This document shows positions 4,595 through 25,002 of a stretch of 27,763 bases of DNA, in pieces (the stretch's first letter is position 1; the number at the start of each line of letters is the position of its first letter). Position numbers and translations under genes: made by a program. The stretch is from Candidatus Heimdallarchaeota archaeon. GTDB lineage: Archaea; Asgardarchaeota; Heimdallarchaeia; Heimdallarchaeales; Heimdallarchaeaceae. Location of the stretch: contig DXJF01000017.1 of NCBI GenBank assembly GCA_019057375.1, forward strand, positions 1-27,763. The letters are read 5' to 3'. The notes beneath the pieces are model-generated. The model did not search any database. It was not told the DNA's origin and worked only from the letters and a program-made list of their open reading frames with translations.

Positions 4595-5215
4595 TTAATC
4601 AAGGTTTAATATCTCTCTGATAATCGTTTCAAAGCTTGTCTGATTTTCATCTAAAGTAACATATGGCCAGATTCTATTTTCAGTACTCATCATATATTCG
4701 GCTAGAGCTATTACATCTCCAACGCCATATCCAAGTTCTTTCTTATTTCTAGCCAAGAAATTGTCGAAGTTTCTTAGCAACTCATCTTCTTTTGCTTTGG
4801 CACCTTTTGTTTCATCAATACGATCTGGATTGTCAAGCCTTTTGAACCTAGTTTTCATAGAAGTATGAAACGCAATTACAAAGACATTATCATCACCATA
4901 ATGTTTTCTTAATATTTCAACCTCTGAAACCGCTCTTATTCCTGAGATAAAAACACCTGGGACTTCACTTGGAAGTGTGTCTATTTTTTTCATCAACCTT
5001 TCTGTAAAAAAGCTATCTGAAATCTTCTTACATTCATCAGTAACCTTCTTAATATTTTCAGGTGTAAAATCAAAACCTCTACTCGTCACTTCTTCTAGAA
5101 CTTCAGTACCAGTTTCATACAAGGGCATACTATATTTTGGCCCAATTACTTTAGCATTAGTCGTTTTACCACTTAGAGGCAACCCAGAGAGAACTACTAT
5201 TTTCACCAATTTCAC
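4595..5215 (-). CDS. UPF0200 / dephospho-CoA-kinase-like P-loop nucleotide kinase
   Basis: Walker A GLPLSGKTT plus FISGIRAVSEVE, TRFKRL and KELGYGVGDVIALAE, matching the archaeal UPF0200 pattern. The start may be GTG 5206, with AGGTGA as RBS. Confidence 0.8.
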   Translation of the reverse strand: MKLVKIVVLSGLPLSGKTTNAKVIGPKYSMPLYETGTEVLEEVTSRGFDFTPENIKKVTDECKKISDSFFTERLMKKIDTLPSEVPGVFISGIRAVSEVEILRKHYGDDNVFVIAFHTSMKTRFKRLDNPDRIDETKGAKAKEDELLRNFDNFLARNKKELGYGVGDVIALAEYMMSTENRIWPYVTLDENQTSFETIIREILNLD

Positions 5216-5227
5216 CTATAGATATTT

Positions 5228-5299
5228 TGGCCAGAGAGCTCACTCTCGTCACAGCTAGCCATAACATTGCTCAGAGAGGTCTATGATAAGCTCTGGCCA
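5228..5299 (-). ncRNA. Candidate K-turn hairpin RNA (H/ACA-guide-like, or an L7Ae-binding 5' leader)
   Basis: Minus strand: UGGCCAGAG-CUUAUCAUAGAC-CUCUC-UGA-GC-AAUGUUAUGGCUA-GC-UGU-GAC-GAGAG-UGAGCU-CUCUGGCCA. It has a 9-bp basal stem, an internal loop, a 5-bp upper stem, tandem sheared G.A pairs, a 3-nt bulge and a C-G closing pair. A TATA-like element lies just upstream. There is no exact ACA box (AAA/AUA follows). Confidence 0.55.
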
Positions 5300-5317
5300 T
5301 ATATACTAAAAGAAGGA

Positions 5318-5327
5318 TATTTAAAAA
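5318..5327 (-). promoter_or_regulatory. TATA-box candidate for the hairpin RNA / kinase transcript
   Basis: TTTTTAAATA on the minus strand, about 20 nt upstream of the hairpin's first base. Confidence 0.45.
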
Positions 5328-5360
5328 ATCAGTGGTTGAACATTAAAAGAGAAAAAGGGA

Positions 5361-18340: not shown

Positions 18341-18670
18341 TCAACTTCTTCTTTTTACTGTCTTGTTATACTTTGACGAATATGATTTTTTTCTCTGCCT
18401 TACATTAGAAGGTTTTCGATCAATCACATAAAGCAAAGTATTAACATCAATTGCTTCCTTATACTGTGGCTTGATTTTAATACTCACATAAGGGGATTTA
18501 ATTGGTCCAAAAATGTCTACAATTTTCCCAATATGTTCCATTCTTTCAGTGACAACATTAGAACCAATTTTGGGAAGTTTTGGAGGATTTTTTAGTATTG
18601 CATTTCCCAAATCACTAAAGAACATTATAGTACCAAGCTTCTTTATTCTTTCTCGCTCCAATTTAATCAA
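18341..18670 (-). CDS. gar1: H/ACA RNP subunit Gar1
   Basis: PKIGSNVVTERMEHIGKIVDIFGPIKSPYVSIK, plus a basic tail. Confidence 0.92.
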   Translation of the reverse strand: MIKLERERIKKLGTIMFFSDLGNAILKNPPKLPKIGSNVVTERMEHIGKIVDIFGPIKSPYVSIKIKPQYKEAIDVNTLLYVIDRKPSNVRQRKKSYSSKYNKTVKRRS

Positions 18671-23038: not shown

Positions 23039-24316
23039 ATGACAATAAAAATCATAGCTAATATTTCGGGATTTTTTGTATTCGATAATCAAGATAAATT
23101 GATCGAGTTTGCAGCTTATGAAAAGAACCCTGAAAAAATTGCTGAAAAGATCCACAACTTATCGAAATATACTATTTCCGAAGAATTAGAGAATATTTTT
23201 TCTGACTTAAAGGAAAAAACTATTGAAACTAATTCAGCTGACGTTCAGAATTTCTCTAGAAGTAAGGGAATAAAGAGTGAACTCATTATTAAATCTGAAA
23301 ATTATCAAGCTGTAATCTCAAAGATTCCAGAAATCCTTATTCAAAAGAATTATATCAAAGACGATGCAGAATATACTGTACTATTGAAAGATGTTAGCAT
23401 AAATCTTTCAAAGAAAAGCGTTGCTTATAGTTCTCAAAGAATTGATAAGAACGTAGTCCACGCAATTTTATCAATGGATGATATAGATAAAACCACCAAT
23501 CTTTTTTCATCTCGAATAAGAGAATGGTATGGGGTTCATTTCCCAGAAATTTTGAAAGAAGTGCAAAATCATGTAACTCTCTGTAAAATCATCACTGAAA
23601 TTGGAACAAGACAAAAATTTACAGAAGATGATCTCAAAGATTATGGGTTCTCAATAGAGAGGAGTAAAAAACTTGTTCAATTAGCATCAAAATCCATGGG
23701 AGCATCTTATGAAGATAAAGATTTGCGTCCTCTACAAGATATGGCGCAAAAAACTCTCGACTTATATGAAGAACGAGAGAATTTGGATAGTTGGATAGAA
23801 AGAGAGATGGGAAGAATTGCTCCAAATATGAAAGCGATTGTAGGGTCTGCTATCGCTGCTAGGTTAATTGCTTTAGCTGGAGGATTGAGAGAAATAGCTA
23901 TGAAACCAGCAAGTACAGTTCAGTTATTAGGTGCTGAAAAAGCTCTCTTCAGAGCATTGAAAACTGGTGCTAAGCCTCCAAAACATGGTATTATCTATCA
24001 AATGCCTGAAATACACAGTTGCTCATGGTGGCAAAGAGGTAATATATCTAGAGCTATTGCTGGAAGACTCACAATTGCTGCTAGAATAGATTTTTTTCAA
24101 GGAGAATTCATGGGAGACCAACTGCGAATTGAGGTTGAACAAAAAATCGATGAAATTAAAGAGAAATATAAGAATCCCCCTGAAGGCAAACAACCACCTG
24201 TTGATAGAAGTTTTCAACCCTCTCAACCAAGACCAAAACGTGGAAGTTACAAAGGTGGTCAAAAGGGAGGTCAAAGAAAACCTCAATATAAGAAACCCTA
24301 CCAAAAGAGGAGATAA
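23039..24316 (+). CDS. nop5: Box C/D RNP core protein Nop5 (Nop56/58)
   Basis: REWYGVHFPE, APNMKAIVG, AARLIALAGG, PASTVQLLGAEKALFR, PPKHGIIYQ and IAARID. Confidence 0.96.
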   Translation: MTIKIIANISGFFVFDNQDKLIEFAAYEKNPEKIAEKIHNLSKYTISEELENIFSDLKEKTIETNSADVQNFSRSKGIKSELIIKSENYQAVISKIPEILIQKNYIKDDAEYTVLLKDVSINLSKKSVAYSSQRIDKNVVHAILSMDDIDKTTNLFSSRIREWYGVHFPEILKEVQNHVTLCKIITEIGTRQKFTEDDLKDYGFSIERSKKLVQLASKSMGASYEDKDLRPLQDMAQKTLDLYEERENLDSWIEREMGRIAPNMKAIVGSAIAARLIALAGGLREIAMKPASTVQLLGAEKALFRALKTGAKPPKHGIIYQMPEIHSCSWWQRGNISRAIAGRLTIAARIDFFQGEFMGDQLRIEVEQKIDEIKEKYKNPPEGKQPPVDRSFQPSQPRPKRGSYKGGQKGGQRKPQYKKPYQKRR

Positions 24317-24318
24317 AA

Positions 24319-25002
24319 ATGTCAAACCTAGAAAATCATAAATTTGGAAATTTGTTTTGGGTAACTACAAAAGACGGAAATAAGAGATTAGCAACTATTA
24401 ATGCCGATCCTGGTAAGAAAGTATATACTGAGAGATTACTAACTGAAGAAGGAACTGAATATCGGACTTTTGATCCCTACAAAAGCAAACTAGGCGCAGC
24501 TATTTTCAAGAAACTTAAAACGTTCCCTCTAACTAAAGGTAGCAAAATTTTGTATTTAGGTGCCGCTTCTGGAACAACTGTATCTCACATTTCGGATATT
24601 TTAGGTGATGAAGGTTCAATTTTTGCTGTAGAATTTTCTGCTCGATCAATGGGAGATCTCATAATTGTTGCTGAAAGAAGGAAAAATATTATACCGCTTC
24701 ATGCAGATGCAAGATTTCCTGAAGAGTATAGTAACATAGTTCCCCAAGTAGATATTGTCTATGAGGATGTTGCTCAACCATCTCAAGCAGAGATTCTTGA
24801 CACTAATGTTAAGACTTATCTTAAAGATGGCGGATATTTCTTTTTAGCTGTAAAATCTAGAAGTATTGATGTAACCAAAGATCCAAAAATAATATTCAAA
24901 GAAGTAATTGATAAGATTGAATCTTTTGGTCTGAAGATTCTTGAAACAGTAAATTTGGAACCTTATGAAAAAGATCATATTATGATTGTTGGGCAAAAGT
25001 AA
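24319..25002 (+). CDS. flpA: Fibrillarin-like rRNA/tRNA 2'-O-methyltransferase
   Basis: YRTFDPYKSKLGAAI, LYLGAASGTTVSH, DARFP and DVAQPSQ. Confidence 0.97.
   Translation: MSNLENHKFGNLFWVTTKDGNKRLATINADPGKKVYTERLLTEEGTEYRTFDPYKSKLGAAIFKKLKTFPLTKGSKILYLGAASGTTVSHISDILGDEGSIFAVEFSARSMGDLIIVAERRKNIIPLHADARFPEEYSNIVPQVDIVYEDVAQPSQAEILDTNVKTYLKDGGYFFLAVKSRSIDVTKDPKIIFKEVIDKIESFGLKILETVNLEPYEKDHIMIVGQK

Follow-up and report, generated by a model that had tools for sequence, protein, structure and literature searches.

Archaeal H/ACA guide RNAs follow a defined geometry, in which the lower stem spans 7-9 base pairs, the GA-stem 8-11, and the distance from the upper stem to the stem end 14-16 nt (PMC4652768). 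The ACA box itself can be absent. It is dispensable in a single-hairpin guide of Haloferax (PMC7075261), and guides without ACA are active in Sulfolobus (PMC11077068). For a class of atypical sRNAs, binding of L7Ae and Cbf5-Nop10 and guide activity in pseudouridylation have furthermore been demonstrated, and proteins from Pyrococcus tolerate guides that lack ACA (PMC11077068). Loss of the ACA box is therefore compatible with function. K-turns also occur in mRNAs. Those in the 5' UTRs of l7ae and nop5-fibrillarin fold only upon L7Ae binding, and occlude the ribosome-binding site (PMC5539422, PMC6298567).

In the literature searched, we found no publication on H/ACA-type, snoRNA-like guide RNAs of Asgard archaea or Heimdallarchaeia. 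The Heimdallarchaeia are among the closest known archaeal kin of eukaryotes. The hairpin described here is 72 bases long and lies at positions 5299-5228, on the minus strand, of a 27,763-nucleotide stretch of DNA from a Candidatus Heimdallarchaeota archaeon (contig DXJF01000017.1), which is called the window below.

A conserved K-turn hairpin on the minus strand

The original prediction described a GC-rich hairpin on the minus strand, and all the elements it listed are present in 5299-5228. The RNA starts with the 5' strand of the lower stem, U-GGCCAGAG (5291-5299), whose partner is CUCUGGCC-A (5228-5236). The proposed 9-bp basal stem thus corresponds to 8 bp and one U-A pair. The proposed bipartite loop and 5-bp stem are an internal loop of 12 and 6 nt and an upper stem of 5 bp. 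The 5' strand of this loop, or pocket, is CUUAUCAUAGAC (12 nt, 5279-5290), and it is followed by CUCUC (5274-5278), the upper stem strand that pairs with GAGAG (5243-5247). The 3' strand of the pocket is UGAGCU (6 nt, 5237-5242). The upper stem is 15 nt away from the end of the basal stem, in agreement with the roughly 15 nt predicted between the top of the pocket and the stem end.

The K-turn was likewise found as claimed, with tandem G.A pairs, a 3-nt bulge and a C-stem of G-C and C-G. Its non-bulged strand (5269-5273) consists of 3n (U), G.A, A.G and the G-C of the C-stem; GA is invariant and 3n variable. The bulged strand (5248-5255) is box C'-like (NGUGANGA) and consists of the C-stem GC, the bulge UGU, G.A, A.G and 3b (C). 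Between the two strands lies the apical loop AAUGUUAUGGCUA (13 nt, 5256-5268). The complete order on the minus strand is U-GGCCAGAG / CUUAUCAUAGAC / CUCUC / U-GA / GC-13 nt-GC / UGU-GA-C / GAGAG / UGAGCU / CUCUGGCC-A.

The G+C content of the hairpin is about 48-51%, compared with 33% for the genome, and it folds by itself at -26 kcal/mol. Folding energy alone is unremarkable (z = -1.87; 10 of 200 shuffles were as stable), and it is the comparative data that settle the question of chance versus conservation. They confirm that the hairpin is real. We aligned 23 sequences from the genus, 21 of them distinct, and all 16 modelled pairs stay paired in every one (100% of cells). Both partners have changed in four of the pairs, of which two belong to the lower stem and one each to the upper stem and the K-turn C-stem, so the covariation check named in the original prediction revealed compensating changes in all three helices. 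None of 500 shuffles matched the observed pairing and covariation, and slid controls were only 40-49% paired.

Two of the nine lower stem pairs have compensating changes within the genus (C-G to U-A in G014 and G002), and other genera carry GACC/GGUC and GGUC/GACC. The upper stem shows one compensating pair and two G.U variants in the genus; in other genera its sequence is wholly different and its complementarity is kept. The C-stem pair C37-G51 occurs as C-G, U-G and U-A. Both GA dinucleotides of the K-turn never vary, and G54, U55, G56 and A57 are invariant (L2 = G, L3 = U). L1 and the 3b.3n pair vary freely, as they should in a K-turn. The GA-stem is 8 in the genus and 8-9 in other genera. 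The U.G pairs and the covariance model, which scored 111 bits on one strand and 19 bits on the other, together identify the minus strand as the RNA strand.

Single-stranded regions are conserved as well. Fixed across four genera are the core of the 5' pocket, UCAUAGAC, then (A)GCU in the 3' pocket, and AUGGCU in the apical loop. A26 and C27 are invariant across the same genera except in G016 (C27 to A). The three 3' pocket bases adjoining the upper stem, which are part of the predicted guide, vary: UGAGCU, CGAGCU, UGUGCU, UAUGCU and AGUGCU occur in the genus, and GAGCU in other genera.

Several other structures were considered and rejected. RNAalifold proposed, on a cross-genus MAFFT alignment, a GAGC:GCUC helix; its four invariant pairs lack two-sided covariation, a fifth pair (39-67) is kept in only 7 of 11 sequences, and the covarying upper stem is ignored. 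The apical stem of the minimum free energy fold (columns 41-44 with 49-52) suits the genus and breaks in G045, a closed-pocket fold (columns 15-19 with 64-68) is disrupted by U.U in most species, and a second K-turn inside the pocket is disrupted by A66 to U. A SECIS element does not fit either, as the orientation of its K-turn is opposite and the upstream gene is complete. A small ORF starting from the apical AUG was discarded because its pattern of variation is not codon-like. In the helix picked by RNAalifold, GAGC in the 5' strand of the K-turn (5269-5272) is complementary to GCUC at the 3' pocket and stem top (5236-5239), and both are invariant in all genera. Such a helix would exclude the K-turn, and might represent an alternative, protein-free conformation.

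The element was found in 23 of the 24 genomes of the genus. There the hairpin is about 90% or more identical, compared with 71-76% for the whole intergenic stretch including its diverged flanks. The covariance model also recovered it in three further genera of the family (47-61 bits), including two complete Ca. Heimdallarchaeum genomes, so that four of the five genera searched within this one Heimdallarchaeota family carry it. The model had no match in 16 genomes from three other families of the order, and a broader model, R2, had none in 137 other Asgard genomes. A wider Asgard family was therefore rejected on the R2 result, and on the plain AT-rich leaders of kinase orthologues elsewhere. 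The Rfam/Infernal search suggested in the original prediction gave no match in the window at gathering thresholds, and a permissive scan gave only chance-level ones (E above 4).

Promoter, kinase gene and transcription

The upstream neighbour, a DUF438/hemerythrin/PAS gene identified by ORF and Pfam, differs between genera. Just 3' of its stop codon (5363-5361, minus strand) is a T-rich run (5345-5357) that probably acts as its terminator, of the archaeal type. It is followed, on the same strand, by a conserved promoter element, TTTTTTAAATAT (5317-5328), which takes the form TTTTTTAAAT or TTTTTTATAT across the genus. Inside it, the conserved TATA box TTTAAATA (5325-5318) precedes the first G of the hairpin (G5298) by 27 nt. 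Three other genera have a TTTTTAWA box 28-30 nt before the hairpin, which gives a spacing of 27-30 nt to the first hairpin base in all four genera. The original prediction had placed a TATA-like element about 20 nt upstream; the TATATA adjoining the hairpin is not conserved. Because the spacing of the TATA box is conserved and is the usual archaeal distance to the transcription start, the RNA likely begins at or a few bases from U5299, the base of the stem.

Downstream of the hairpin, on the minus strand, lies the gene for a UPF0200/AdkA-like P-loop kinase (4595-5206; 203 aa from GTG 5206; Pfam AAA_17), with matches to PDB 3H0K (UPF0200 SSO1041) and 3LW7 (E about 1e-11). The hairpin had been predicted to end 13-22 nt before the kinase start. 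A short distance was indeed found, and the alignment favours a start at GTG 5206, 21 nt after the hairpin. These 21 nt (5207-5227) contain the Shine-Dalgarno sequence AGGTGA (5217-5212) and no conserved ACA/ANA box. The Shine-Dalgarno is 10 nt past the hairpin, and in the predicted fold it does not pair with it. In the genus, the spacer has no T-run and leaves no room for a promoter, which implies that the kinase is transcribed through the hairpin.

The gene 3' of the hairpin is the same UPF0200-type kinase in all four genera, with orthologues of 66-70% identity located 3' of it in the three others. The transcriptional arrangement differs between them. G044 resembles the genus, as its kinase, too, can be transcribed only through the hairpin. 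G041 has a TATA-like box before the kinase gene. In Ca. Heimdallarchaeum (G045 and G046) the hairpin gives way to a long T-rich run, and a TATA of its own precedes the kinase; judged by these signals, the two appear to be transcribed separately. In other families of the order, kinase orthologues have short AT-rich leaders and no hairpin. Our conclusion is that the hairpin constitutes an independent RNA gene, which in the genus has come to serve as the 5' end of the kinase transcript too.

Two further observations concern the kinase. In another family, the leader of the orthologue (L167 and L168, from G027 and G031) contains CUCAUGGCUUUC, which resembles the apical AUGGCU; there is no hairpin there. 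A paralogue with 29% identity (G000:C47:77582-78175) lies tail to tail with cbf5 (78231-79181). This paralogue is probably the ordinary archaeal cytidylate kinase, which would make the kinase next to the hairpin an extra, UPF0200-type copy.

Candidate targets in ribosomal RNA

The target expected from the original prediction, AGCUCA-U-N-GUCUAU, matched nothing in 16S rRNA, 23S rRNA, the 28 tRNAs, RNase P RNA, SRP RNA or the pre-rRNA flanks, and the canonical target formula was also unmatched in the kinase mRNA and the window. Among less strict pairings, LSU U678 (AGUUUA-U-G-UCUGUGG) forms 13 pairs, and only 1 of 300 shuffles was as good (12 of 400 in a looser scan). It was rejected because it lies in a variable helix, and because the U is G or A in 9 of 16 family genomes while the guide is unchanged. 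Pairings with 16S U898 and tRNA U8 were discarded as well; they are mostly G.U, or just 5 bp to the common D-stem GUCUA.

Helix 69 of the 23S rRNA, GGAGC-U2013-AA-CUAUGAG, is invariant in 17 family genomes, and its U2013 is the equivalent of E. coli U1911. The loop, CUAUGA(G), is complementary to the invariant UCAUAG of the 5' pocket, with an additional C in other genera, and (GG)AGC is complementary to the invariant GCU(CU) formed by the 3' pocket and the top of the lower stem. Such a pairing would use invariant guide bases, and leave most of the variable ones (columns 64-66 and 16-19) unpaired. Its geometry is non-canonical, with U2013-A-A unpaired. A comparable U-N-N, in this case U-G-C, stays unpaired with the Pab19 guide, which is active (PMC2377435). 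Screening of the whole genome yielded no other hairpin complementary to helix 69, and when other Asgard genomes were scanned with a pattern for canonical helix 69 guides, the matches stayed at the level of the controls.

About half of the shuffled guides or pockets find an equally good rRNA site, two to three guide bases are spare on each side of the junction, and A66 of the source genome could pair with the target U2013. For these reasons, we regard helix 69 as the best candidate only. By complementarity it is the sole conserved candidate target, and it is not significant on its own. The pairing also leaves the invariant A26 and C27, as well as the apical loop, unexplained.

The pocket of the genus contains four bases, CUUA, that are absent in other genera and are complementary to the UAAG following helix 69. 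The pocket as a whole (5279-5290) could thus bind three successive stretches of the helix 69 region (LSU 2016-2031) with GCUUCU looped out, and this may be due to chance.

The rRNA genes have features of their own. The 23S rRNA gene (G000:C12:79333-82910) is 3578 nt long and the archaeal model has 2987 positions, which indicates expansion segments. The 16S rRNA gene (94353-95863 of G000:C12) is 11 kb away, so the two are unlinked. A GC-rich island at G000:C145:49086-49220 reads like a 5S rRNA (..GCGGCCAUAG..CCCAUUCCGAAC..); a genome search with RF00001 was without a match.

Function of the RNA and its relation to described guides

The proposed H/ACA guide reading stood the comparison in part. 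The geometry of the apical K-turn hairpin, the promoter at its start and the kinase just after it were all recovered; the ACA box and the predicted target were not. A lower stem of 8 bp and one U-A pair, 100% paired, is within the 7-9 bp of classic H/ACA RNAs, as is the GA-stem of 8-9 within their 8-11. A variant ACA box (AAA/AUA) had been suggested. The bases at 13-15 nt are not conserved, and the region 14-16 nt beyond the upper stem is without an ACA (ANA) box. As the three bases that come after the stem, members of the genus have AAA, AAG, AAU, AUA, AGU, AAC or ACG, and the other genera have CUU, ACU or GUU. At the ACA position only the first A is common, and that A pairs with U7. Conversely, the atypical H/ACA-like class shares the K-turn without ACA and has no lower stem, which in our hairpin is present and covaries. 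The RNA thus sits between both classes.

Box C/D sRNAs have a terminal box C (RUGAUGA) and box D (CUGA) around guides of 10-12 nt. The hairpin differs from them, with a single internal D'/C'-like K-turn and box-free termini that are joined by Watson-Crick pairing.

The genome encodes Cbf5, Nop10, Gar1 and L7Ae. The presence of gar1 (18425-18643), nop5 (23474-24151) and fibrillarin (24334-24996) in the window was correctly predicted. In two whole-genome descriptor scans (lower stem, pocket, upper stem, GA..GA), only two hairpins were both intergenic and preceded by a promoter, the kinase-linked one and a second K-turn hairpin of the same build, hairpin B (G000:C12:62559-62632, minus strand; L169:660-733). 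Hairpin B lies on another contig, is preceded at about 29 nt by a TATA and is followed by a T-rich tail of its own; it lacks ACA and is unlinked to the kinase. Its lower stem has 10-11 bp, its asymmetric pocket is CUCGUGUG / CACUUC, and its upper stem has 5-7 bp. The K-turn is of the D'/C' type, and UUAUGG after the 5' GA is common to both hairpins, while the sequences of stems and pocket are unrelated. Of 30 family genomes, 25 carry it; they belong to three of the five genera searched, and five of its pairs covary. The best conserved complementarity of hairpin B is to LSU GGGGUG-U3516-A-CGCG(U)CGAG, and it is not significant by shuffling. Within this match, C/U changes of the guide are always opposite G, and there is one U-A/C-G exchange in G005.

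Our preferred reading, to which we assign about an even chance of being right, is that the hairpin is the gene for a small H/ACA-type K-turn RNA, with helix 69 as the likeliest substrate, and also the 5' end of the kinase transcript. The archaeal RNA polymerase would start at or within a few bases of U5299, L7Ae would bind the apical K-turn, and Cbf5-Nop10-Gar1 may assemble on the lower stem and the internal loop despite the missing ACA box. UCAUAG and GCU(CU) would pair with helix 69, and U2013 would be pseudouridylated. In the genus, where the RNA has no terminator of its own and the kinase no promoter of its own, the hairpin would form the 5' end of the kinase transcript, and may be trimmed from it.

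The fold and its covariation are equally expected of a K-turn RNP RNA with a role other than guiding modification. It could serve as an L7Ae-bound scaffold, or as a chaperone of rRNA folding or processing, whose pairing with helix 69 or some other RNA would not lead to isomerisation of a uridine. For such a chaperone role, snR30/U17 provides a comparison. The missing ACA, the non-canonical junction and the strictly conserved apical AUGGCU, which a plain guide does not need, all point in this direction. Furthermore, sR666 of S. islandicus is a Cbf5/L7Ae-bound K-turn hairpin without guide function (PMC11077068). A large single-stranded internal loop with invariant bases, however, is a trait of guides, and is absent from sR666, and besides helix 69 no partner RNA was found among the tRNAs, RNase P RNA, SRP RNA and pre-rRNA flanks scanned. 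We regard a non-guide RNP as improbable, yet it has to be taken seriously, given the unexplained conservation of the apical loop and of A26-C27.

A cis-acting role in the kinase 5' leader is quite unlikely. Here, L7Ae or a full RNP on the hairpin would lower translation or alter the stability of the message. L7Ae controls mRNAs via 5' K-turns in Sulfolobus and Archaeoglobus (PMC5539422, PMC6298567), hairpin and kinase stay linked in four genera although their upstream neighbours differ, and in the genus and G044 the kinase can be transcribed only through the hairpin. Nevertheless, the hairpin is not built as an L7Ae switch, since it is stable alone and the Shine-Dalgarno lies unpaired 10 nt beyond. 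The T-run and second TATA of G045 and G046 part the hairpin from the kinase, and G041 has its TATA-like box before the kinase. Hairpin B has the same build without dependence on a downstream gene, kinase orthologues of other families lack such a leader, and the invariant loops are unnecessary for L7Ae binding. The L7Ae-responsive leader, which the original prediction had offered as its alternative, is therefore weakened by a ribosome-binding site outside the stable hairpin and by the apparently separate units of Ca. Heimdallarchaeum.

A riboswitch-like sensor of a ligand or protein, regulating the kinase by way of a K-turn that brings the conserved apical loop onto the conserved internal loop, is hardly credible. 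The hairpin does resemble K-turn riboswitches, which combine two strictly conserved single-stranded regions with a K-turn, and CAUAG of the 5' pocket is complementary to the apical CUAUG in most sequences. In two lineages, G021 and G044, an A.C mismatch disrupts this pairing, however, and hairpin B has no loop-loop complementarity. Moreover, an expression platform is missing, the Shine-Dalgarno is sequestered in no case, and in Heimdallarchaeum the hairpin appears to form a transcription unit of its own.

If the hairpin is a guide with a lower stem and without ACA, anchoring of Cbf5 via its PUA domain would be more flexible than in the classic model, and the gap between classic and atypical archaeal guides would be filled. 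In bacteria, the U1911-equivalent position is modified by a protein-only enzyme; if helix 69 is the target, an RNA-guided enzyme would act at this position of the decoding centre. The order of sRNA and then gene is, in addition, a clean case for promoter sharing between archaeal sRNA and mRNA. Going further, the Heimdallarchaeaceae may possess a third guide architecture, in which the lower stem is kept and ACA is lost. One helix 69 guide would be fused to the 5' end of the kinase mRNA, where a Cbf5 particle on the lower stem, 10 nt from the Shine-Dalgarno, would couple the capacity for ribosome modification to the expression of this nucleotide-kinase-like protein. This scenario is a long shot.

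Compared with L7Ae-bound UTR K-turns, the hairpin is similarly a K-turn in a 5' leader shortly before a start codon. The regulated genes of the former are sRNP components, whereas the Heimdall gene is a kinase. With the classic single-hairpin H/ACA sRNAs of Pyrococcus (Pab19 above all, and Pab91 and Pab160/Pf9; PMC2377435, PMC4652768), the hairpin shares an 8-9 bp lower stem, an internal loop, an upper stem and an apical K-turn, as well as a GA-stem of 8-9 and a distance of 15 nt between upper stem and stem end. In Pab19, too, the 5' pocket is oversized and two extra bases stay unpaired after the target U, and the guide is active nonetheless (PMC2377435). Unlike these sRNAs, the Heimdall hairpin is without an ACA/ANA box, a canonical target and sequence or Rfam similarity, and it keeps unpaired guide bases beside the upper stem. 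The atypical sRNAs of Pyrobaculum and Sulfolobus islandicus (sR109, sR136, sR148, sR563; PMC11077068) share the K-turn hairpin and the lack of ACA. These crenarchaeal RNAs have no lower stem and their guide arms are free single strands, whereas in the Asgard RNA the pocket is closed by a covarying stem of 8-9 bp.
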